Positions 15,058-64,000 of a stretch of 64,000 nucleotides of DNA are shown one piece after another; the first letter of the stretch is position 1; the number at the start of each line of letters is the position of its first letter. Below the pieces are notes generated by a model. The model did not search any database. It had not been told where the DNA came from and worked only from the letters and a program-made list of their open reading frames with translations. Source of the stretch: an uncultured Lachnospiraceae bacterium (GTDB lineage: Bacteria > Bacillota > Clostridia > Oscillospirales > CAG-272); contig CAZUWA010000001.1 in NCBI GenBank assembly GCA_964623895.1, forward strand, positions 24,829-88,828, given 5' to 3'. Position numbers and translations under genes: made by a program.

Positions 15058-16440
15058 ATGAATGAATATTTAAAAAAAACGGAAGAAATGGACGCCGGCA
15101 TGCACAATGGCGTTAGTTATGATACCGTCAAGCGTGAGATCACGCTTGAAAACGGAAAAAACGCGGCGGTATACTGTGTGAATGGGTGTGTTGACAGTGA
15201 ACTTATTGAAAAATTGATAAGAACAATCCTCGACGGTCAACCGCCAGAAAAACTTCCTTTTGCCGATATGTCTGTAAAAATGAGTGCAAAAGAGGCATTG
15301 ATCGATGTATATACCGGCAATGCTATTGTCATTTTTGAAGGAACGAGCGGTTTTGTCTCGGTGGATGTGAAAGCAATGCCGCTTCGGAGTATTGAAGAAC
15401 CTTCGAAAGAAAAGGTGTTGCGCGGTGCAAAGGATGGCTTTGTAGAGAGTATCGTGCAGAATTCCGCGCTCATTCGTCGCAGGATCAGAGATTCAAAACT
15501 GATTTTCAAGAGGCTTTCTGTCGGAAAAAGCAGTGTGACCGATGTGGCTATCTGCTATATGGAGGATCGGGCAGACAGTCGATTTGTGAATAAATTGATC
15601 TCGGAAATTGACAGTATTGACATTGGCGCGCTCAATATGGGGCAGGAGAGTCTCGCAGAACTGATGATCAAAAAGAAAAAATACAATCCTTTTCCAAAAA
15701 TTCGCTATACCGAGCGACCGGATGCGGCGGCTGCAATGTTGATGGAGGGAAGTGTGATCGTTCTTTGTGACAATTATCCTGCCGCGATGATCCTGCCGAC
15801 ATCGTTTCTCGATTTTTTGCAAAACACTGATGACTTCTATTTTCCCCCGGCGATCGGTGGGTATCTGAAGGTGGTCAGAAACGTTGTGTACCTGTTTTCC
15901 ATCATTTTGACACCGGTATGGTTTTGTCTGCAACAGTATGCGGATATCATTCCCGAACCGCTTTCTTTTCTGATTTATAAAGGAGAAAGTTTTTTGCCGC
16001 TTCTTTTTCAGATCTTATTGGTAGAACTTGCGGTCGACGGATTAAAGTTGGCATCACTCAATACCCCCGATACCCTTTCTAATTCCTTAAGCGTTATCAG
16101 TGCTCTGATCCTCGGTGATTTTGCAATAGAGGTGGGATGGATCTCCGAGCAGGTGATCTTATATATGGCTTTTGTTGCCATTGCAAACTTTGCCCAGCCC
16201 AGTTATGAATTATCTTATGCTTTCAAATTTATGAGAATGATCACATTGCTCCTGATCGCTCTCTTTGGAATTTATGGGTTGGCAGTCGGAGTGATCTTTA
16301 CGATCACGACAATTGTCACAAACGGTTCTTATCTTTCGGGCAAAGGATATCTTTATCCATTGATCCCGTTCAACGGAAAAGCTTTATTCAAACTTTTGTA
16401 CCGTGTCAGTACGGAAAAAGATAAAAGTTTAAAAAAATAA
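15058..16440 (+). CDS. Spore germination protein, GerA/SpoVAF family (A subunit-like)
   Basis: 460 aa with a soluble N-terminal domain (VRGAKDGFVESIVQNSALIRRRI) and a C-terminal multi-TM region, as in GerAA/SpoVAF. Confidence 0.8.
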   Translation: MNEYLKKTEEMDAGMHNGVSYDTVKREITLENGKNAAVYCVNGCVDSELIEKLIRTILDGQPPEKLPFADMSVKMSAKEALIDVYTGNAIVIFEGTSGFVSVDVKAMPLRSIEEPSKEKVLRGAKDGFVESIVQNSALIRRRIRDSKLIFKRLSVGKSSVTDVAICYMEDRADSRFVNKLISEIDSIDIGALNMGQESLAELMIKKKKYNPFPKIRYTERPDAAAAMLMEGSVIVLCDNYPAAMILPTSFLDFLQNTDDFYFPPAIGGYLKVVRNVVYLFSIILTPVWFCLQQYADIIPEPLSFLIYKGESFLPLLFQILLVELAVDGLKLASLNTPDTLSNSLSVISALILGDFAIEVGWISEQVILYMAFVAIANFAQPSYELSYAFKFMRMITLLLIALFGIYGLAVGVIFTITTIVTNGSYLSGKGYLYPLIPFNGKALFKLLYRVSTEKDKSLKK

Positions 16441-22481: not shown

Positions 22482-23894
22482 ATGGCAGAACTTGTTTTAC
22501 CAACCATTCCGGTGCAGATCGTTGTGCATTTGGGTACGGAAGGCTCGGAAGCGCCCAATATCAGCGTTGGTTTTTTGGATTACATCGCCAATGTTGCTTC
22601 GAACGAGATCTATCCGACTTGGCCGGAAAGTGCGATCGTTGCCAATGTCATTGCACAGGCGTCTTTTGCCCTCAATCGGGTATATACCGAATTTTACAGG
22701 AGCAAGGGTTATGATTATGATATCACTTCTTCTCCTGCTTCCGACCAGACCTATGATCCGACGGGCAGCGTTTTTGAGAATGTCAGAGAGATCGCGGGAA
22801 GATATTTTAACAGTTACATCCGCAGGGTAGGATCGGTCGAACCGCTTTATGCTCTTTACTGCGACGGAAATGTCACGCAATGTGCAGGACTTTCTCAGTA
22901 TGGCTCACGCGATCTCGCGGAGCAGGGATTTGAAGCGGTGGAGATCTTACGGTACTATTATGGGGATGATATTGAATTGGTGACCGACGTTCCGGTCGCC
23001 ACGGAGGAAGTGGAGATTGCCTTGCCTTTGGATCTCGGCTCTGTCGGAAACAGCGTTTTTGATGTTCAGCATCGTCTGAATCGCATTTCGGTGAATTACC
23101 CTGCGATTCCGAAAATTCCCGTGGAGGATGGTATTTTCGGTGAAGAAACGGCACGCTCGGTTCGTGAATTTCAAAAGATCTTCAACTTGCCGCAGACGGG
23201 GATTGTCGATGACGCCACGTGGTATCAGATCAGGGGAATTTTCAATGCCGTGAAAAAGTTGAACGAACTCTTTTCCGAAGGTCTGACTTTTGAGGATGTT
23301 TCATTACAGTATCCCGAATATCTATCGGAAGGGGATAGCGGTGTTTATGTCAGCATCATTCAGTATTATCTCAATTTCGTAAGCGCCTTTACGACCGATT
23401 TTACTGACATTCCGATCAACGGCGTTTATGATGGCGCAACTGTCGAGCAGGTGAAAAATTTCCAGATCTACGCCGGGCTCGTGCCGACCGGCATTATGGA
23501 TGTCGATACATGGAACGTGCTTTTTGATATCTATATCGGCATTGTTGAAAATCTTCCTGAGAATGCTGATGAAGGTGCAGCGCGCCCATTTCCCGGCATT
23601 ACTTTGCGATTCGGCAACAGTGGGGATGATGTTCTTCTTCTACAACAGTATATCAATACGCTTGCCGAATTTTATGACACTGTGCCTCAGATTAGTGAGG
23701 ACGGAATTTTCGGAAGCGAGACAAGGGATGCTGTCTATGCCGTTCAATCGCTTTTTGATCTGACGTTGGACGGCGCAGTAGATGCCATTACATGGGCGGT
23801 CATTGCCGATGAGTATGAAACAATCAGAAAGGGACTTCTTGAAAACGAGGATCAGTTTCCGGGGTATCTTATAGAGAGAGGAGAAGGACAATGA
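22482..23894 (+). CDS. SpoIID/LytB-like domain protein with three PG_binding_1 repeats (possible cortex/cell-wall lytic enzyme, SleC-like architecture)
   Basis: The N-terminal domain ends in LSQYGSRDLAEQGFEAVEILRYYYGDDIEL, a SpoIID-type tail. It is followed by three repeats of the pattern G..V..LQ..L...DG.FG..T..AV..FQ...L..TG..D..TW. Confidence 0.75.
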   Translation: MAELVLPTIPVQIVVHLGTEGSEAPNISVGFLDYIANVASNEIYPTWPESAIVANVIAQASFALNRVYTEFYRSKGYDYDITSSPASDQTYDPTGSVFENVREIAGRYFNSYIRRVGSVEPLYALYCDGNVTQCAGLSQYGSRDLAEQGFEAVEILRYYYGDDIELVTDVPVATEEVEIALPLDLGSVGNSVFDVQHRLNRISVNYPAIPKIPVEDGIFGEETARSVREFQKIFNLPQTGIVDDATWYQIRGIFNAVKKLNELFSEGLTFEDVSLQYPEYLSEGDSGVYVSIIQYYLNFVSAFTTDFTDIPINGVYDGATVEQVKNFQIYAGLVPTGIMDVDTWNVLFDIYIGIVENLPENADEGAARPFPGITLRFGNSGDDVLLLQQYINTLAEFYDTVPQISEDGIFGSETRDAVYAVQSLFDLTLDGAVDAITWAVIADEYETIRKGLLENEDQFPGYLIERGEGQ

Positions 23895-24397
23895 ACAATT
23901 ATCCGGTTGAAAGTGTGCAGCGATGGTTGCGGATCATTGAAAGTGGCGGGCAGCCGATTCCGAGAATTTTGGTTGACGGTGTATATGATCGACAAACGGA
24001 AGAAGCAGTGCGTATCTTTCAAGGTATCAACGGTCTACCCTCGACCGGGACGGTGGATTTTGACACATGGAATCTGCTGCGCACAGTCAGCAGAGAAATA
24101 GAGGAGCAGAACAATGAAAGTGCGCCTATTTATCCGTTTGAATACGCTCTCAAAGACGGAAAGGCGGTAAAGGGAGACCGTTTTTATCTCATTTACATTA
24201 TACAGGTGATGATCGACAGTATTGTTGTAAGCTACAACATTCCCCCACAACCGATCACGGGATTATATGACGATCAAACGGAGCAAAACATCAGCAGATT
24301 GCAGGGAATATGGAATATTCCCGTCACCGGAGAAACGGATAAACAAACATGGAATTATTTGGCGGAAGCATATAACGTCAATATGAACAAAGAATGA
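23891..24397 (+). CDS. Peptidoglycan-binding domain protein (two PG_binding_1 repeats)
   Basis: ATGA-coupled to the preceding gene. Repeats VDGVYDRQTEEAVRIFQGINGLPSTGTVDFDTWNLL and ITGLYDDQTEQNISRLQGIWNIPVTGETDKQTWNYL. Confidence 0.7.
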   Translation: MNNYPVESVQRWLRIIESGGQPIPRILVDGVYDRQTEEAVRIFQGINGLPSTGTVDFDTWNLLRTVSREIEEQNNESAPIYPFEYALKDGKAVKGDRFYLIYIIQVMIDSIVVSYNIPPQPITGLYDDQTEQNISRLQGIWNIPVTGETDKQTWNYLAEAYNVNMNKE

Positions 24398-46608: not shown

Positions 46609-47571
46609 TTACTTTTCAATAGCAGTGTAACCTTCGGGAACGAGAATGCCCAATTCTTCGCACATTTCTGCATTGTACAGTTTGGTGGCAGTGGCGTAAC
46701 CGATTGGCATTTCCTCAATCTTTGCTTCGCCCTTTAAGATCTTTGCAGCCATCTCGCCGGTAGCATAACCGAGGTCATAGTAACTAATGGATAGAGTTGC
46801 AATGCCGCAACCGGTGCAGATGCCCTGTTCGCCTGCGATCAGCGGAATCTTCGCCTTGCGCACTTCGTTACCGATGGTCTCAGCGCAAGTTGCCGCGGTG
46901 TTATCGGTGGGAACATAAAGTGCATCGGAATTTGCAACTGCCGCGGCGGCGATTGTTGCAATATCGTTCGAGTCGGAGAAGGGATATTCGGTTACAGTCA
47001 GACCTTTTTCTTTGAGATAGTTCTTGACGGCATTGACCTGATATTTGGAGTTTGGTTCACTGGAGCAGTAAATGATACCGATTTTCTTAGCGGTCGGAAC
47101 GAGGTCAATGATCATCTGTGCCTGTTCATCGAGCGGAGCAAGGTCGGAAGTACCGGAAACATTTCCGCCGACAGTGCCATTGAAGTCGCTGATATTGAGT
47201 GCGACACCATATTCGGTAATGGATGTACCAAGGATCGGAATGCTGTCTGTTGCATTGTAAGCAGCTTGCAGGGCAGCGGTCGCATTTGCCATGATCAGAT
47301 CATGCTTTTTTGAAACAAAACTGGTGCAGATGGTCGTGCACAGTGCAGGATCGTTGGAAGCGTTCTGGTCGTCGAATTCCACATTTTCTTCGCCAAGAAT
47401 GTCCTTAAGTGCTTGTTTGAAACCTTCCGTTGCCTGATCAAGGGCAGGGTGTTGAACGAGTTGGCAAATGCCGACGGTGTAGACCTTTTTCTTTTCGGTG
47501 CAAGAGGTAAACGTGCTTACTGCTGTCAGCAACGTGATGCAGGCAAGGATCAAACTAATTGTTCTTTTCAC
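46609..47571 (-). CDS. ABC transporter substrate-binding lipoprotein (ABC_sub_bind / PF04392-like class)
   Basis: GTG start behind AAGGAG and lipobox FTSC. The sequence VYTVGICQLVQHPALDQATEGFKQAL...DDQNASND is typical of this family. Confidence 0.8.
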   Translation of the reverse strand: MKRTISLILACITLLTAVSTFTSCTEKKKVYTVGICQLVQHPALDQATEGFKQALKDILGEENVEFDDQNASNDPALCTTICTSFVSKKHDLIMANATAALQAAYNATDSIPILGTSITEYGVALNISDFNGTVGGNVSGTSDLAPLDEQAQMIIDLVPTAKKIGIIYCSSEPNSKYQVNAVKNYLKEKGLTVTEYPFSDSNDIATIAAAAVANSDALYVPTDNTAATCAETIGNEVRKAKIPLIAGEQGICTGCGIATLSISYYDLGYATGEMAAKILKGEAKIEEMPIGYATATKLYNAEMCEELGILVPEGYTAIEK

Positions 47572-47640: not shown

Positions 47641-47911
47641 AACAAAAAGTCTCTGTGCACTCATTACAAGCGCACAGAGACGACGATGATCGGCGTGTTA
47701 CCACTCTGCTTTACGGCTTTTTTACAAAAACCGCCTTATCGGGCAAAATTGTCCGCGCTTTAACGGGCGCACCGGCGAAAGGACTTTCTTCCTTCGCGGC
47801 TTGCGGAGTGTAATTCATTTCTTCTTCTCCGGCAGGTCACACCGACCCCTGCCTCTCTTTGGGAGGTAGCAAAGAAACTACTGCGTTCCGTTCATTGCTT
47901 TTAAAAATATT
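47641..47911 (-). promoter_or_regulatory. T-box riboswitch leader (tRNA-sensing transcription attenuator) controlling the ABC importer
   Basis: Read on the minus strand, the leader carries the AGTA-type element CAGTAG, an AG bulge AGAGAG, the distal loop GGTGTGA and a specifier region GAAUUACAC. It also has the T-box sequence AGAGTGGTAACACG (47692-47710) and the terminator GTCTCTGTGC...GCACAGAGAC + TTTTTG (47641-47682). Confidence 0.85.
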
Positions 47912-57062: not shown

Positions 57063-58196
57063 TTATTTTGTCACAAATTGTATGTTTAAGACGACAATTT
57101 CGTTCGCCGTTCCAATGCGAAGCGGTGGCCCCCAATAACCAACGCCGGCGGTCGTGACGGCATGACCGCCGTGTTGCTGTTGATGTCCGTAGGAAAATTT
57201 TGACATGAGCTTTGACGCAATATTGCCGGGAAAAGTCTGACCGTTGTGGGTGTGCCCGCATAGCACAAGATCTGCGCCTGATTTCAAAAGATGTGCTGCA
57301 TCTGCCGGGTTATGGTCTAAAACAATGATCGGCTTTTTATGAGATCCATCCAAAATCTCTTCCGCAGTTTTGCGTGCGGCATATTTTGAAAGCGTACCTT
57401 CATGTCGATCTCGTCTGCCATAAAGAGTAAAGAGAGGTAGTTCCAGTCTCTCGTCGGCAAGAAGAGTGATGCCTGCTTTTTGATAGAACAGAGCAGTACG
57501 CGGATCGTCAATGCCATAACTGTCATGATTTCCGCGACAGAAATAGATCGGATATTTTTCAGAAATGGCAGAAAGCGCCTCAATTGCCGTTTCTTCCTCT
57601 TTGATTTCATCGTAATCGTTGTCAAACAGGTCACCTGCAACGAAGACTGCGTCCGCGTTTTCTTTGATTACTGCATCGCGCAGTCGGTAAAGAAGTCCCT
57701 TGGTTGTAAAATAACCGAGATGTAGATCGGAAAATAAAACAGCGTGGTAACTGCCGGGACAGTTGGAAGGTATGTCGATATGATATTCTATTCTTCGGAG
57801 CTTCCTGGCATTCAGTCCGCCGTATATCCTCAAAACGATCAGCGCCAATAGTGTGGCGACTATCATGAGAGTGAAATTGATGGTAAAAAGACCTGTCAGG
57901 TAACTGAAATAGCAGACTACGGCATCAAGAAGCAGGAGGATCAAAAGATAGAGATAACTTCCGATGATCGTTTCTGCCAAGCGGTGCAAAATCCTTCTGA
58001 TCTTTTTTCCCGGAAGCATACCGGAAAGTGGAAAGAGCAGTGTGGGACATAAAGTCAAGATCGTCAACAACACTGCATGCCACACTGTAAAAGCACCGTT
58101 TGAGGAGAGATAAAATCCGCCTGCGGTAAACGCAAGCACCAAGATGCCGAGTGGAATGATGAGGACCTTTTTGATATCTTTGGATGTTTTTTGCAC
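57063..58196 (-). CDS. Membrane-anchored metallophosphoesterase (YkuE-like)
   Basis: Four N-terminal TM helices. Motifs SDLHLG, AGDLFDND, GNHD and CGHTHNGQ. GTG start behind AAGGAGG. Confidence 0.85.
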   Translation of the reverse strand: MQKTSKDIKKVLIIPLGILVLAFTAGGFYLSSNGAFTVWHAVLLTILTLCPTLLFPLSGMLPGKKIRRILHRLAETIIGSYLYLLILLLLDAVVCYFSYLTGLFTINFTLMIVATLLALIVLRIYGGLNARKLRRIEYHIDIPSNCPGSYHAVLFSDLHLGYFTTKGLLYRLRDAVIKENADAVFVAGDLFDNDYDEIKEEETAIEALSAISEKYPIYFCRGNHDSYGIDDPRTALFYQKAGITLLADERLELPLFTLYGRRDRHEGTLSKYAARKTAEEILDGSHKKPIIVLDHNPADAAHLLKSGADLVLCGHTHNGQTFPGNIASKLMSKFSYGHQQQHGGHAVTTAGVGYWGPPLRIGTANEIVVLNIQFVTK

Positions 58197-58244
58197 AGTA
58201 ACATCCTCCTTTCTTATATAGAGAACGATTATATGAATGTAAGC

Positions 58245-58282
58245 AAAATGCCGTAGCGCGTGGTGGCGGGCTACGGCATTTT
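58245..58282 (-). terminator. Strong hairpin with U-run located 5' of the metallophosphoesterase gene (leader attenuator or relic terminator)
   Basis: AAAATGCCGTAGC ... GCTACGGCATTTT, a 13-bp stem including its A/T arms. It lies 49 nt upstream of the GTG start. Confidence 0.5.
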
Positions 58283-58688
58283 CATGTCAGAAGGTTTTTA
58301 CTTATGTGCTCGTCAGTACACTGCGGCAGATTGTTTTTGGATGTAACGACAGAGCAACCGTTATGACTACAGTATATTTGTGCCCACAATGGTGCATGCC
58401 GTTTGTGATGTAAATATACTTGCCGGAAGCATAACTGTGGTTGTGCGCGCCGACAGAGTAAAAGGCGGTGTCGGCATTTGCAGGATAGTTAAATATAAAT
58501 ACAAGCAGTCGAAAATATGACAGTTTCTTTTAATTATTATATCATAACCTAATCCCCTGTGTGTGAATAAACTATGAACTTTCGCATTTTCGCTATATTT
58601 CTGTGGAAAACCAAGGAAAAGTCGGTCACACAACGCGATACGGCTCTGCTAAAATAGCATTGCAGATGAAAGAGAGGAGGAAGATACG

Positions 58689-58949
58689 GTGGCATCCGGA
58701 AAAAAAGGTTTTACAAGAGAGCATGTCTTGGAGCGTTTATGGCGCATTGCCGAGGACGCGCGCAAAGCGACTTGGGTGGAAAAAACGGACAAAAACGGAG
58801 AAACTGCGGTGGAATATGACACCAAATGTGCTTCAATCGAGCTTAAGGCGATCGAGTTCGCGGTGAAGTTGTCTGGGTTGTCCGAGCAGAGCGTTGCAGA
58901 GACCGTTACAGTCAGTCTTGGGGATGACGTCAAAGAATTGGCGATCTGA
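58689..58949 (+). CDS. Terminase small-subunit-like protein lacking the N-terminal HTH (86 aa)
   Basis: GTG start behind GGAGG. FTREHVLERLWRIAEDA...ASIELKAIEFAVKLSGL resembles the C-terminal oligomerisation half of Terminase_2-type TerS. Confidence 0.4.
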   Translation: MASGKKGFTREHVLERLWRIAEDARKATWVEKTDKNGETAVEYDTKCASIELKAIEFAVKLSGLSEQSVAETVTVSLGDDVKELAI

Positions 58950-59050
58950 GTATGCCCTGATAAAACCGCAAAAGCAAAAGGAATAATTCTTTGGACGGAT
59001 CATTTTCATCTGCGATCTGTCCGAAAGGAAAAGAAAAAGGAGGAAGGATC

Positions 59051-59230
59051 ATGATTCAACTGATCTATAACGAGTGGGGCATTGATGAAAACGCACAGCC
59101 CGTCAAGCTGCAGGTCTATCTTGCCGGTGTCAATGACACATTGCCAAAGGAGGCTTCGGTTGGCAGTAGGGTGATCTTTGATGACGGCAGCAAGGCTTTG
59201 ATGACTCCCTCCGGTTGGCAAAAGGGGTGA
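59051..59230 (+). CDS. Small hypothetical phage protein (59 aa)
   Basis: ATG behind AAAGGAGGAAGG. It occupies the slot where a large terminase is expected. Confidence 0.4.
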   Translation: MIQLIYNEWGIDENAQPVKLQVYLAGVNDTLPKEASVGSRVIFDDGSKALMTPSGWQKG

Positions 59231-59234
59231 GGAT

Positions 59235-61148
59235 TTGAAGTGGCTTGACAGACTGAAAAAAGTATCCGTGAAGGAAAAAACGATGTCTGAGATTGTCAAA
59301 CTTCCGAAGTTCGACGGAGATGGTTCGGACGGTATGCCGGGCAGTGATGATGAAGGAAGACCGTTTTACGGTGAGGATCTTGTTAAGACAGTTAAAATGG
59401 AGGCAGACCGCAGAAGGAACGAGCGGCTTCCTTATGAATTGCAGTGGCGACTGAACCGTAATTTTTTGGCAGGCAATCAGCATTGTGACATTGACGTGCG
59501 AAAGATGACGGTGGAAAACTATCGTCCGCCATACGATTACATGTCTGAGGAGATCTTCAACAAGATCGCACCGATCATGGAAAGTCGGATGGCACAGTTT
59601 AAAAGTGTCAGTTACGACATGGAAGCTGTTCCCGAAACGACCGGTTATGAAGATGTGCAGCAGGCGGCAGTCGCCGGCGCACTGATTGTCGGAAGGATTG
59701 GCAGAAATGCATTCAAAAAAGAACTGAACCGTGCGATGGGACTTTGCGAGACAGACGGAACGACTTTTTTTCTTTGTTGGTGGGACAAGGAGAAAGGTGA
59801 GCCTGTTGATACGGTACTGTCGTCCTTTGAGATCCTACCGGCGGATCTGACGGAAGAAAGCGTTGAAGGGCAGAGTTCGATCATCATCGAGCAGGTAAAA
59901 AGTCCGGAAGAGATCTTCACGCTGTATGGCGTGAAGGTCCGAGGGGAAAAAGTTCATAGTTATGCAAGTCTCTCCACTGCCGGCGCGGGTGGGTTTGGCT
60001 ACCGTTCTGGGACGGCACTTTTTACTCCCGTCGAACGAGAAAATTGCGTTGTTTTGCGGAACTATCTTGAAAAGCCGAGTGGAAAATATCCACAGGGTAG
60101 GATGGTCATTACGGCAGGAGATACGTTGATCTACAGTGGCATATTGCCTTATGAGGAGTATCCGTTGGTTTCGATGAAAGCGATGTATGTCACCGGTCAA
60201 TTCTTTGGCAGAAGTGTCATTGAAACGATGATTCCTCTTCAGAGAAGTTACAATGGTATCAAGAACCGCATCAACGATTACATCAATCGTTCCGCTTGTG
60301 GGCAGATACTGATTGAGGAAGGATCAGTCGATGCTGATGACATCACCGAGCGAGGATTGGAGCCCGGTGCATCGGTTATTTACGCAAGAGGTGCTACGCC
60401 TCCGAAATTGATGGAAGAGCCCACCCTCAGTGCGCTGGCTGAGACGCAGTGTGCACAATTGGTTTCCGATATGGAATATGCTGCAGGGGTCTCTGCGCTG
60501 TCTGCAAACGGCATTCTGCCGAACGGTGTCAACTCGGGAACAGCAATCGGAAGACTGCAAAACATTGATAGCGTCAGACTGTCTCTGTACACAGAAAACT
60601 ATCGGGCAGCATTACTGTGCCTTGCGGAGAAGTGGATCACGCTCTACCGAAATTATTTAAGCGAAGAGCGGGCAGTGCGATTGGTCGGGAATGGCGCAAG
60701 AGGTGCAGTGGCATTGTTCACCGGGCGTACCCTGAAGTATGGTGTTTTGCGCTTTTTGACGGAAAATGAACTGAAAGTCAAAGAAGATGAACAGCGAGAA
60801 CGCTATTTGGAGGCTTTAAAATTGGGGCTATTTTCTGAAGAAGATGGCAGTATTTCGGCAGAGAACAAACGCTTTGCCGTGAAAAAATTGCTTGGTACAG
60901 ACAAATCCCCCCCTAGCGAAGCGGATCTTCAGCATCAAAATGCACAAAATGAGAACATTGATTTTGAACTGGGCGAAGTATTACGGATTGAACCGCTCGA
61001 TGACCATGTCTTGCATCTAACGGAGCATCGTCTCTATGTATTGGAAGACAGTTTCAGAGAACGAATGAAGAAAGATCCGCATTGGGCGGAACCGATGTTA
61101 GAGCACATCAAGGAGCATGAATCACTGCTCAAGGAGGAGAAAAAATGA
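59235..61148 (+). CDS. Phage portal protein
   Basis: 637 aa with an N-terminus (MKWLDRL...) and WRLNRNFLAGNQ typical of portals, an acidic/His C-terminal region, and a position before scaffold and capsid. The alternative start is ATG 59283. Confidence 0.75.
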   Translation: MKWLDRLKKVSVKEKTMSEIVKLPKFDGDGSDGMPGSDDEGRPFYGEDLVKTVKMEADRRRNERLPYELQWRLNRNFLAGNQHCDIDVRKMTVENYRPPYDYMSEEIFNKIAPIMESRMAQFKSVSYDMEAVPETTGYEDVQQAAVAGALIVGRIGRNAFKKELNRAMGLCETDGTTFFLCWWDKEKGEPVDTVLSSFEILPADLTEESVEGQSSIIIEQVKSPEEIFTLYGVKVRGEKVHSYASLSTAGAGGFGYRSGTALFTPVERENCVVLRNYLEKPSGKYPQGRMVITAGDTLIYSGILPYEEYPLVSMKAMYVTGQFFGRSVIETMIPLQRSYNGIKNRINDYINRSACGQILIEEGSVDADDITERGLEPGASVIYARGATPPKLMEEPTLSALAETQCAQLVSDMEYAAGVSALSANGILPNGVNSGTAIGRLQNIDSVRLSLYTENYRAALLCLAEKWITLYRNYLSEERAVRLVGNGARGAVALFTGRTLKYGVLRFLTENELKVKEDEQRERYLEALKLGLFSEEDGSISAENKRFAVKKLLGTDKSPPSEADLQHQNAQNENIDFELGEVLRIEPLDDHVLHLTEHRLYVLEDSFRERMKKDPHWAEPMLEHIKEHESLLKEEKK

Positions 61149-61555
61149 CAGAAGAAAAGGAAATGATAGACTCAACGAAAGAAAAGAGTTACGAAGAACT
61201 GGTGCGCGAATTGGAAGAGACCAAGCGCTTGTTCGCGATCGAAAAGGAAAAACAACAAGGCTATGCTGTTTTGGAAAAACTCATTGGTTCGAGAAATGAT
61301 CCGACATTCGGCGAAGCGGTTAAAATAGCGGAAAGCGAAGCCATGCAGACGTTTCCTGCGGAAGAACGGTACCGCAAAAGTTTGCTGATGTGTTATGGAG
61401 AGAAATATTTTTCCGCGAGAGAACAGCAAAAGCAAACACCGCAGATGCCACCGGTATTTGCCCGTTCCTCCGGCGCGGGACAAGCGGAGGTTATGAAAAA
61501 ACCTACCGATTTCAAGACGGCACGAGAAAATTCATTCAGATACCTAAAAAAATAA
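61145..61555 (+). CDS. Phage scaffolding-like protein
   Basis: 136-aa charged, helical protein between portal and capsid, ATGA-coupled to the portal gene. Confidence 0.5.
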   Translation: MTEEKEMIDSTKEKSYEELVRELEETKRLFAIEKEKQQGYAVLEKLIGSRNDPTFGEAVKIAESEAMQTFPAEERYRKSLLMCYGEKYFSAREQQKQTPQMPPVFARSSGAGQAEVMKKPTDFKTARENSFRYLKK

Positions 61556-61579
61556 CAGAAAGAAAAGGAGAATAAAATC

Positions 61580-62812
61580 ATGTCTACAAATTTAAACACC
61601 ATTTCCGATATTTTGAAGGAGCAGTATCTTCCTGCTTTGCAAAATCAGATTACGACCGCACCGTCTCCTTTTATGGAGATGATCAAAAAAGTACCGCTGA
61701 CTACCGGTGGGAAGATCACAGCGGTTGCACCTTTCGGTATTAACGGCGGCTTTGGTTTTGGCAGTGACGGCAACAATACACCTGCATCCGGCACTCGAAA
61801 ATACAAGCGTTTCGAGGTTGAGCCGGTGGATATGTATGTCGATATCCGCATTACCGATAAGACTGTCAAACTGGCTAACGAGGAGGGGGCTTTGATCTCT
61901 GCGTTGGAGGACGAAGTGATGGGATCTTATGAATCCGCCAAGTGGAATGTCTCCAGAGCCTTGTTTGGGGATGGTTCCGGTAAATTGTGTGCGCTGACTG
62001 CGGCATCGGTAAATAACACATCCGATTCGACCGTAACTCTAACGGTTGATGAATGTGCAAATCTCATTGAAGGGTTGACGGTGGATGTATACAGTTATTC
62101 GTCTGCGACTGTCGAAGCAACTCTTTCTGCCAACAATGCAGGTTATCGCATTGCGGCAATTGACAGAGAGAACAAAAAGGTGGTCTTGGAAGGTTTGGGC
62201 GCTACCGCAACAGTCAAAAATACCGAAAAGAACGACTACGGATTTCTTTGTGTTCAAGGATCTTACAACAAGGAACTGACGGGTCTGAAGGCAATCTTCG
62301 ATGACAGTGTTACTGAAATTTACGGTTACGATAAGGCAACGCATGCTTTTGTCACACCGCTCAAGATGGATGCCGCACATGCGGTTTCAGATATGGTGAT
62401 TTATGATGCTGTCAAAAAATCTGCGGACTACAGAAACGGTAACATTGATCTTGTTATGCTGGGTGACAAAGCATTCCGCGCTTATCAGAACTATATGAGG
62501 GAAAATAATGTTACCATTTGTGAAAAAGCTGAGTTCGTGGGTGGCGCAACTGGTTATAAGGTGTTGGTAGGCAGCCGTACCGTTACGATCGTCAATGAAA
62601 AGATGATCCCGACAGATGAGGCATGGTGTGTAGACACCGGCGCATTTACCTTTGCTCATCTCGACTTTGACTTCTGCGATTACGGCTCTTCAGGAATTTT
62701 CCAACTCGTTCCCGGCACTTCTTACTACCGTGCGTTACTTGCTTCTTACGGCAACCTTATTTGTAAGAATCCCGGAAGTTGCGTGAAGATCATCAATTTT
62801 GCAGAAGCATAA
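61580..62812 (+). CDS. Phage major capsid protein
   Basis: 410 aa with a strong AAAGGAGAA RBS, positioned after the scaffold. The N-terminus ISDILKEQYLPALQNQ resembles coat proteins that use a separate scaffold. Confidence 0.7.
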   Translation: MSTNLNTISDILKEQYLPALQNQITTAPSPFMEMIKKVPLTTGGKITAVAPFGINGGFGFGSDGNNTPASGTRKYKRFEVEPVDMYVDIRITDKTVKLANEEGALISALEDEVMGSYESAKWNVSRALFGDGSGKLCALTAASVNNTSDSTVTLTVDECANLIEGLTVDVYSYSSATVEATLSANNAGYRIAAIDRENKKVVLEGLGATATVKNTEKNDYGFLCVQGSYNKELTGLKAIFDDSVTEIYGYDKATHAFVTPLKMDAAHAVSDMVIYDAVKKSADYRNGNIDLVMLGDKAFRAYQNYMRENNVTICEKAEFVGGATGYKVLVGSRTVTIVNEKMIPTDEAWCVDTGAFTFAHLDFDFCDYGSSGIFQLVPGTSYYRALLASYGNLICKNPGSCVKIINFAEA

Positions 62813-62871
62813 GAGAAAGGGGGGGCAAGATCTGTGGGTCTTGCGCCCCCAAAAAAAGAAAGGCAGGATGA

Positions 62872-63195
62872 ATGATGTTTACATTAAACAAATTATATGA
62901 ACAGATCAACGCGCTTTGTCCTATCGACAGGCAAACCTTTGACGCCTTCTTGCCGGATGCTGTTCTTGATCTTTGCTGTATTTGCGGAAGCAAGTATTTA
63001 AAAAAAGAAGAAGGAGCAGTAGCAACGGATTTTCCGATTAGAGAGGAATACTATACTGCACTTCTTTCCGTCATGCTGTACCTGATACGGGGAGATGTTG
63101 TAGACTGGGAACGTGCAATTGAGCGAGCAGAAGGTGCAAGAGATCAGATATGGAGGCAGAAGGCGGAGAAGAACCGAAACGGAGGAAAAAAGTGA
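62872..63195 (+). CDS. Hypothetical phage protein (possible head-tail connector/adaptor)
   Basis: 107 aa, in the position immediately after the capsid gene. Confidence 0.4.
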   Translation: MMFTLNKLYEQINALCPIDRQTFDAFLPDAVLDLCCICGSKYLKKEEGAVATDFPIREEYYTALLSVMLYLIRGDVVDWERAIERAEGARDQIWRQKAEKNRNGGKK

Positions 63196-63779
63196 AGAAA
63201 ACGATTGAAAATATAAATAACTACGTGGAAGATATTCTTGCCGATTATCCTTATTTTCCTGAACGCGCCAAGTCATTTTTGGCAGAAGAACTGACGGCAC
63301 TGCAATGCGGATATTTTGCTTTGTGCCCGGAGGTTGTTGCAATGGAACGGACGCTTCAATCCGATCTATCCCTTCCGCTTTCTTCACTTTCCACCGAAAC
63401 AGGGCGCCTTTTGAACTCGGAAGAGATCGTTGCGGTCTTCTTGGGGGGCAAAGAGCTTCCGAAAAGACAGGTTTTACAGTTTTATCGCTCGAATTTGCCG
63501 GGCTTCACCGTGGAAGAAGACAGGATCGTCTGCCGCGTAGAGGATCAGAGTTCCGATCTTACCATCCTTTTTGCCCAATGTCCAAAGGATATTACTTATT
63601 CTGCAGAAACAGGATATACAGGGGAGATCTGTATTTCAAAAACATACCTTCCGATAGTTTCGGCAAGACTCAGAGAACTAATCGCACGATTAAGTGGGGA
63701 AGAGGAAGATGCGGACCATTTTGCCGATTGCTATAACGCATGGCTGGTACGGCTGAAAGAAGAGAGAGGAGGCGGGTAA
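63192..63779 (+). CDS. Hypothetical phage protein
   Basis: GTG at 63192 overlaps the previous stop (GTGA) and sits behind GGAGG. The track start at 63150 is less likely. Confidence 0.45.
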   Translation: MKKTIENINNYVEDILADYPYFPERAKSFLAEELTALQCGYFALCPEVVAMERTLQSDLSLPLSSLSTETGRLLNSEEIVAVFLGGKELPKRQVLQFYRSNLPGFTVEEDRIVCRVEDQSSDLTILFAQCPKDITYSAETGYTGEICISKTYLPIVSARLRELIARLSGEEEDADHFADCYNAWLVRLKEERGGG

Positions 63780-64000
63780 TGATTTCGATCAAAAGAAGTG
63801 GGAACCGGGAGGAGCGCGTTCGGGTGTCCAAAAGCAGTTTTGTCGGTGTCGGCAAGGATGTCTGTCTTGATCAGATCAAAAATGCGGATGTTTCAGACGG
63901 ATATTTACGTGTTTGCAAGGCATGGAAGGCGCCGACATTTACCGTTCCATCCACCGTGTATGGAATCTTTTCAGCAAATGGCAGAATGATCGTCGCGGCA
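63779..64000 (+). CDS. Hypothetical phage protein, 5' partial (MISIKRSGNREERVRVSKSSFVGVGKDV...), runs off the window
   Basis: ATG overlaps the previous stop (TAATG). The frame stays open to the end of the window. It is not in the ORF track because no stop is reached. Confidence 0.4.
   Translation, partial: MISIKRSGNREERVRVSKSSFVGVGKDVCLDQIKNADVSDGYLRVCKAWKAPTFTVPSTVYGIFSANGRMIVAA

Follow-up and report, generated by a model that had tools for sequence, protein, structure and literature searches.

A cluster of phage head genes lies at positions 58689–64000 of a 64-kb stretch of DNA from an uncultured member of the Clostridia; 'the window' below means this whole stretch. Comparison with related genomes indicates that it is a vertically inherited, chromosomally fixed and domesticated cluster of podovirus head and nozzle genes, of the type found in gene transfer agents (GTAs), and that the gene for the large terminase, TerL, has been lost in the window lineage. 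We regard this identity and history as highly probable, and the explanation that we favour for the cluster as a whole, down to its present state, as probable to a lesser degree.

A conserved cluster at a fixed chromosomal site

The genomic contexts of relatives were drawn from a gene index, from a set with one genome per species and from metagenomes; L-numbers denote their loci or contigs, and P-numbers database proteins. A search with the window's portal protein returned 158 homologues, and identity exceeded 55% only for the window's own protein. Six species carry the cluster in synteny, at L004, L005 (with L006, L007 and L011), L008, L009, L010 (with L072) and L012, and the portals of this clade are 43–55% identical to that of the window. 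The cluster is ~9.5 kb in size and is present whole, at 9.7 kb, in L010 and L072. It opens with a gene for a protein like the small terminase, TerS (82–88 amino acids, aa), followed by TerL (445–450 aa), one to three small or variable open reading frames (ORFs) and the portal gene; scaffold-like, capsid, ~105-aa, ~205-aa and ~480-aa nozzle genes come next, and an XhlA-like coiled-coil protein, an ~83-aa membrane (holin-like) protein or both complete the order. The L008 contig begins inside the cluster, and its gene content agrees with that of the others from the SPOR-domain gene on; a SPOR-domain protein is encoded between TerL and the portal in L004, L008, L009, L010 and L012.

The proteins of the window have orthologues throughout this arrangement. 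The 86-aa TerS-like protein is 59% identical to L004_87 and 46% to L005_82, and the 136-aa scaffold-like protein 36% identical to L004_157; the window's capsid is 57–72% identical to those of the clade. Orthologues of the 59-aa protein (45–46% identical) directly follow TerL in L010/L072 and L012. Those of the 107-aa protein (26–39% identical) have the corresponding position in clade members whose sequence extends to it, and those of the 209/195-aa protein are 23–31% identical. A metagenome scan with the nozzle gave no match, and with the capsid protein it returned the L010 species again only.

The site is conserved as well. On the left, a metallophosphoesterase gene is the neighbour on every contig that reaches so far (all but L008), with DAGK and/or acyltransferase genes further out where these are covered; orthologues of this metallophosphoesterase in L004, L005, L009, L010, L012 and L072 are 32–51% identical. 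On the right, rpmA-prp is found in L004, L009, L010 and L072, with rplU beyond it in L004; the exception is L005, which has an ABC transporter in place of rpmA-prp. Between the host genes of the window, L004, L005, L009 and L010 there are only head, nozzle and small genes. No integrase, repressor, replication or lysogeny domain was detected at any locus of the clade, either in Pfam annotations or in our own scans, and the window's left side holds no integrase, replication or lysogeny genes. These findings agree with the initial annotation of the window, which had reported that the module directly adjoins host lipid and phosphoesterase genes and that integrase, repressor and replication genes are lacking on that side; the comparison with related strains that it had proposed reveals the same cluster at the same site in at least six species, again without integration, replication or lysogeny genes.

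The divergence of the cluster follows that of its neighbour. Pairwise identities of the portal and of the metallophosphoesterase are correlated (r = 0.90; exhaustive Mantel test, p = 0.004), and for both proteins L005 is the outgroup, while L009 and L012 are the closest pair. Among IMG/VR sequences no portal is more than 39% identical to the window's, and the portal relatives found there sit on viral contigs of 47–59 kb. Because the site is conserved, the cluster has diverged together with its host and mobility genes are absent, we take it to be vertically inherited rather than a recent prophage or a mobile satellite.

The decaying prophage lacking its left arm that the initial annotation had considered is contradicted by these data, and we think it very improbable that the cluster is what remains of an ordinary P22- or SU10-like prophage after loss of the left arm and TerL. 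The head genes do derive from phage, and the portal is 34–39% identical to those of phages and prophages on ~50-kb contigs. However, in at least six species this compact cluster is bounded by the same host genes, with a divergence that tracks the host genes, and it is under strong purifying selection (see below). A left arm is missing throughout the clade, both flanks consist of host genes whose order is conserved, and no integrase, repressor or replication gene occurs in any relative. More generally, the equipment of a temperate prophage (integrase, att repeats, repressor, replication genes and a full set of tail and lysis genes) is found neither on the window's left nor, on either side, in the relatives; on the right, the window lineage was covered to 260 bp past the nozzle. 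That every species should have decayed independently to an identical set of genes is not credible.

Some further features of the flanks vary between species. In four relatives a gene for an 810- to 850-aa protein with a Peptidase_C1 segment and a C-terminal dockerin stands between the metallophosphoesterase gene and the cluster (L005:5585–8038, L009:4670–7099, L010:3089–5635 and L012:2157–4595); it is not present in the window or in L004. An insertion of ~4.7 kb between the cluster and rpmA, seen in L004 only (L004:16400–21050), contains DUF772/DDE transposase fragments, an ECF-type sigma factor gene and four unknown ORFs. In L004, L009, L010 and L072 the right flank is the rplU-prp-rpmA operon, in which prp codes for a protease of ribosomal processing, Prp.

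Loss of TerL

No TerL was found in the whole 64-kb window by tblastn with the TerLs of the relatives (E ≤ 1e-3). In five out of five relatives whose sequence covers the slot, TerL is in place (PHROG 979, E = 2e-45), starting at the stop codon of the TerS-like gene or at most 10 nucleotides (nt) from it. These TerLs are 62–75% identical among themselves and 49–56% identical to those of phages and prophages on ~50-kb contigs. The corresponding slot in the window, and hence the site of the deletion, is 58950–59050. Since TerL occupies the same slot in every relative covered, parsimony indicates that its absence is a secondary loss in the window lineage. The SPOR-domain gene is likewise not found in this lineage.

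An independent Logan assembly, L067 (SRR10277276), is 99.4% identical to the window over 3264 bases. It has the same arrangement of metallophosphoesterase, 86-aa, 59-aa and portal genes, without any difference within 58950–59050, and as its junction is identical, the missing TerL is not an assembly artefact. The gap between TerS and portal that had been noted in the initial annotation is thus genuine. A candidate remnant of TerL was considered and rejected: the peptide 'ALIKPQKQKE*FF', encoded after the 86-aa gene, resembled TerL N-termini, but a TerL profile hidden Markov model (HMM) gave negative scores on the junction, and local DNA alignments of the junction to TerL were not better than those of shuffled sequences (p 0.04–0.5). 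Because neither the HMM nor the shuffle test yielded a remnant, the deletion is treated as clean.

The presence of TerL in the relatives also bears on the suggestion, made in the initial annotation, of a capsid-forming satellite or a GTA-like element that borrows its terminase. Phage satellites such as the capsid-forming phage-inducible chromosomal islands (PICIs) are mobile elements equipped with integrase, replication and regulatory genes. Like these small islands, which have their own capsid, portal and small terminase, the window has a small cluster with capsid and TerS-like genes, no TerL and no tail fibre genes, as might a satellite using the terminase and tails of a helper phage. Unlike them, no member of the family has an integrase, replication/primase genes or a regulatory module; the window and the complete relatives lack a helper-responsive regulator, their chromosomal position is fixed, and they have diverged together with the host. 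Moreover, each relative covering the slot has a TerL of its own, so that use of a helper's terminase is not the strategy of the family. We therefore retain the GTA-like part of the suggestion and discard the satellite, and with it borrowing as a design; there seems very little chance that the cluster is a satellite of this kind.

Selection on the remaining genes

The window was compared with a second strain, represented by L067 and L001, and with a sister lineage, L073. Within the cluster, 33 coding differences separate the window from L001/L067, 22 of them synonymous and 11 non-synonymous, which corresponds to a ratio of non-synonymous to synonymous substitution rates (dN/dS) of ~0.14 (binomial p = 7e-8 against neutrality); in the capsid gene there are six synonymous differences and none that is non-synonymous. 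The single coding indel, 3 nt in the 107-aa gene, is in frame and distinguishes the window from L001. There are no frameshifts, and two 1-nt indels between the strains both lie in an intergenic spacer. In comparison with L073, at a dS of 0.60, dN/dS is 0.10 overall, 0.03 for the capsid, whose protein is 95% identical, and 0.14 for the 136-aa scaffold-like protein.

All eight remaining ORFs are full length with respect to their orthologues. The proposal of the initial annotation that the genes left behind are under selection holds both between TerL-less strains and against L073. Relaxed selection in the window lineage was considered and rejected, as distances to the outgroup L005 are not raised: identity to L005 is 43% for the window's portal as compared with 43–47% for the others, and 57% as compared with 55–56% for the capsid. 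The comparisons show the remaining genes to be intact and, to judge by their substitutions, under purifying selection.

Genes of the cluster

Window proteins were searched against Pfam, PHROG and NCBIfam, and compared with the PDB by sequence and with Foldseek. All ORFs of the cluster in 58689–64000 are co-directional, on the plus strand, and their positions agree with the earlier ORF list; the order that had been read from it (TerS-like, 59-aa ORF, portal, scaffold-like, capsid, connector-like, with coupled junctions) stands on the evidence of ORFs, family matches and overlaps at the junctions. The ORFs for portal and scaffold-like protein overlap by ATGA, those for the 107- and 195-aa proteins by GTGA, and those for the 195-aa protein and the nozzle by 1 nt.

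The 86-aa TerS-like protein (58689–58949, plus strand) on its own gives a weak match to phrog_51 (E = 0.07), has no N-terminal DNA-binding domain, and has no sequence match in Pfam, NCBIfam or the PDB. Five of six orthologues match PHROG 51, the small terminase (best E = 7e-4). Since these alignments are confined to the C-terminal part of the profile, positions 148–224 of 261, the protein resembles a TerS reduced to its core, with no DNA-binding domain. It is followed, beyond the TerL slot, by the conserved 59-aa protein (59051–59230, plus strand), which has no family match in Pfam, PHROG or NCBIfam.

The portal (59235–61148, plus strand) is of the P22/SU10 type, matching Pfam PF16510 (P22_portal; E = 2e-18), PF23899 (SU10_portal; E = 2e-13) and PHROG 156 (E = 1e-28). 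The ORF is 637 aa long from a TTG codon and 621 aa from the ATG at 59283, as in the database protein P0001; the latter is the likely start. The 410-aa major capsid protein (61580–62812, plus strand) matches NCBIfam NF033394, capsid_maj_Podo, with an E-value of 6e-36 and 124 bits against a curated cut-off of 80, and PHROG 14242 (E = 6e-30).

Three proteins around the capsid carry positional labels. The 136-aa protein (61145–61555, plus strand) is called scaffold-like from its position and composition and has no family match. The 107-aa protein (62872–63195, plus strand), likewise without a family match, would be a head-completion or connector protein by its position. The 209-aa ORF (63150–63779, plus strand) is assigned as a putative head-to-tail adaptor from its position directly upstream of the nozzle gene. 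Its product is probably 195 aa long, from the GTG at 63192, in agreement with the earlier ORF list and with the L073 gene call (196 aa). No sequence match was found for it in Pfam, PHROG, NCBIfam or the PDB, and a single-sequence structure model was uninformative (pLDDT 38).

The last gene of the window encodes the first 74 codons of the tail nozzle or hub (63779–64000, plus strand) and runs off the window's end; the full protein, 473 aa, was obtained from L001 and P0121. An AlphaFold model of the full-length protein (pLDDT 88, pTM 0.88) matches the Pa223 tail (9nwi_Y, E = 3e-16) and P22 gp10 (8eap_D, E = 4e-16) in a Foldseek comparison with the PDB, and also Sf6 gp8, VP1 and T7 gp12. The model thus identifies the protein as a predicted podovirus tail hub/nozzle of the P22 gp10 kind.

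L001, from a strain that shares 99% identity with the window, has a strong terminator hairpin after the nozzle gene (GGGTATGTAAAAAAC...GTTTTTTACATACCC, then a T-run). Neither an XhlA-like 90-aa nor a holin-like 83-aa gene is present in the 260 bp after the nozzle (L001:4650–4910), whereas XhlA-like and/or holin-like genes follow the nozzle in all relatives whose sequence extends to this point, a hint that more genes have been lost. Of what the initial annotation had proposed to look for beyond 64000, tail genes were recovered in the form of the completed nozzle, and genes of the lysis type were not seen in those 260 bp.

Comparison with known systems

Host DNA is commonly packaged in a GTA-like manner in gut Ruminococcaceae, Oscillospiraceae and Christensenellaceae (Nat Commun 2026;17:2046, PMC12946183). 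In Faecalibacterium prausnitzii it involves FpGTA, whose operon I is 10.5 kb long with ten ORFs, among them a TerS without DNA-binding domain, TerL, portal, a Prp-annotated protein, a capsid of the 'N4-gp56 family' and a nozzle annotated as 8eap; a second operon, 125 kb away, encodes fibres, a receptor-binding protein, holin and endolysin (PMC12946183). FpGTA particles measure ~40 nm and carry 8.4- to 8.9-kb pieces of host DNA, and homologues of FpGTA were not found in Gemmiger or Subdoligranulum, the related genera searched (PMC12946183).

The cluster described here resembles FpGTA operon I in being a compact (~10 kb), podovirus-like chromosomal operon of gut Clostridia without replication or integration genes. 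In the relatives the gene order agrees with TerS (without DNA-binding domain)–TerL–portal–x–capsid–x–x–nozzle, as it does in the window except for TerL, and the nozzle matches the same PDB entry, 8eap. It differs in host lineage and chromosomal site, as well as in the absence of TerL from the window copy. No Faecalibacterium entry is among the best 120 matches listed in the capsid search (of 3322) or in the portal search. By analogy, the cluster would work like FpGTA operon I, a likeness drawn from the architecture, the kind of TerS and the fold of the nozzle. Prp appears in both settings in a different way: the cluster adjoins the host's rplU-prp-rpmA genes, while FpGTA operon I itself holds a Prp-annotated protein between portal and capsid.

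The GTA of Alphaproteobacteria, RcGTA, is likewise a phage-derived head and packaging cluster at a fixed locus, vertically inherited (general knowledge and PMC12946183). Its TerS is without the DNA-binding domain, genes for replication and integration are missing, and accessory genes may lie elsewhere, as they may here. In contrast to the podovirus-type portal, capsid and nozzle found here, it is siphovirus-like, with an HK97-type head and long-tail genes, and bears no sequence relation to the cluster. P22- and SU10-like podoviruses and uncultured gut phages of ~50–58 kb share with it the portal family (PF16510/PF23899), a podovirus capsid, a gp10-type nozzle and the order TerS–TerL–portal–scaffold–capsid. 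These phages have genomes of 40–60 kb with replication, lysis, tail-fibre and often lysogeny genes, unlike the cluster, and their portals are at most 39% identical to the window's.

Features by which a GTA is recognized are thus found in the family: structural genes unaccompanied by replication, integration or lysogeny genes, a fixed locus and purifying selection. A large terminase of its own is encoded in the five relatives covering the slot and not in the window.

Neighbouring genes and other features of the window

The cluster's conserved left neighbour, the host metallophosphoesterase gene, lies at 57063–58196 on the minus strand (Pfam Metallophos, E = 4e-17). It is followed on that side, also on the strand opposite to the cluster, by other host genes, for a DAGK/YegS-type lipid kinase, an acyltransferase and ApbE. 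The intergenic stretch upstream of the cluster (58197–58688) contains one sigma-70-like match, at 58517–58545; a scan of the cluster region for promoters and terminators gave results not above chance.

A possible second phage-like locus at 14–29 kb was ruled out, its ORFs being host genes (GerA, RsgA, SpoIID/PG-binding, GDPD and others). The segments 15058–16440 and 22482–24397 encode a GerA spore-germination protein and two adjacent proteins with repeated PG_binding_1 domains, one of which also weakly matches SpoIID. The host, a member of the Clostridia, therefore appears to form spores. The sole Rfam match in the window is a T-box leader (RF00230, 104 bits) at 47673–47904 on the minus strand, upstream of a minus-strand gene at 46609–47571.

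Discussion

We propose, by analogy with FpGTA and RcGTA, that in the related species the TerS-like protein and TerL would drive pieces of host DNA by way of the portal into capsids, which would then be closed by adaptor and nozzle and released by lysis, with fibre and lysis functions perhaps encoded at a second locus. In the window lineage the capsid proteins would still be made without any DNA packaging of its own, and the cluster would rely on a terminase encoded elsewhere, for example by a related prophage or at a second locus. That the window's cluster still functions in this manner, with a terminase in trans, is a tentative proposal to which we give slightly less than even weight; we nevertheless favour capsids dependent on an outside terminase over a recently disabled relic.

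A relic of that kind would be the same GTA-type element, with the window copy dead and TerL lost too recently for disabling mutations to have accrued. To our knowledge no tailed phage or GTA can package DNA without TerL, yet there is none in the 64 kb. The small genes after the nozzle appear to have been lost from the window lineage too, which would be a second loss, and the two losses together point towards decay. The divergence between strains at the junction weighs in the same direction. Window and L067 differ at nine positions in 58267–58557, all upstream of 58558 (~3%). Over the 835 bases that follow, across the junction of the TerL deletion, they differ at a single position, within the 86-aa gene; the 236 non-coding bases by the junction are identical. 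Such uneven divergence is possibly the mark of a recent recombination tract. With zero divergence at the junction, the deletion allele may have spread recently by recombination, and in that case the low dN/dS would date from before the loss of TerL. Faecalibacterium also offers a precedent: its GTA loci are reported to have been lost in part, with operon II undetected in seven of 12 strains (PMC12946183). On the other side, the two TerL-less strains differ at 33 coding sites with the low dN/dS given above and an in-frame indel only, the eight remaining ORFs are full length, and the TerS-like gene, useless without TerL, is likewise intact. A dead copy thus seems to us possible but rather unlikely.

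Other observations weigh against our interpretation of the cluster as a co-inherited GTA. The portal and nozzle of the window are slightly more diverged than the host-gene distances predict: identities are 47–54% for the portal as compared with 56% for the comparable L004–L010 pair, and 28–31% as compared with 39% for the nozzle. Differences from FpGTA extend to annotation names, the capsid being capsid_maj_Podo here and of the N4-gp56 family there, and to the spacer between portal and capsid, here a 136-aa protein without a Prp match and there Prp-annotated. Finally, we infer the GTA label by analogy, from architecture, synteny and selection.

A different use of the genes is conceivable. Capsid, portal, adaptor-position and nozzle genes that continue to be selected after the loss of TerL, and apparently of lysis-type genes, might belong to a capsid module repurposed for a role without DNA packaging, either in protein-only particles or as structural genes for another element. 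A portal- and nozzle-bearing capsid working without a terminase has no known precedent, and the retention of the TerS-like gene points to packaging; we consider such repurposing improbable.

Compact clusters at fixed sites are not confined to the clade of the window. In Christensenellaceae genomes (L031–L061; for example L039:6591–18168), a related cluster is syntenic in at least 10 species and comprises an HTH/sigma-r4-like protein of 160–190 aa, TerL, a ~100-aa protein, portal, a ~230-aa protein, capsid, small ORFs, a ~500-aa protein and a DUF7934 protein, located between host genes for IleS, a CNNM transporter, a methyltransferase and a pseudouridine synthase and, at the opposite end, genes for MurG and a hydrolase. 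Another host site again is occupied by a third compact cluster, in a metagenome-assembled genome of the Ruminococcaceae (L068:5557–16545; also L069 and L070); there the neighbours are yabP-yabQ-divIC...barstar genes and an efflux ABC transporter. Its products are a 102-aa TerS-like protein (weak Terminase_2 match), TerL, portal, a capsid 50% identical to the window's, proteins of 615 and 444 aa and, at the end of the cluster, a Peptidase_M23 protein and a 75-aa holin-like protein. The Christensenellaceae and Ruminococcaceae clusters are candidate loci for the GTA-like packaging that has been reported for the two families.

Faecalibacterium is so far the one genus in which a gene cluster responsible for such packaging has been named (PMC12946183). 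The window belongs, in our reading, to a separate syntenic family of GTA-type clusters in uncultured Clostridia, and these clusters are concrete candidate loci for comparison with particle-DNA data. We offer as a speculation, rather unlikely on balance, that the cluster, having lost TerL and probably its lysis genes, is kept by selection as the structural half of a split system with its motor encoded elsewhere or as a capsid needing no packaging, and that this cluster and the two other fixed ones may underlie the packaging reported for Oscillospiraceae and Christensenellaceae. The TerL-less copy is in effect a natural knock-out. If its capsid genes are truly still selected, GTA functions would be split across loci, or the capsid would be put to another use; if they are no longer selected, the window would record a first step of GTA decay.

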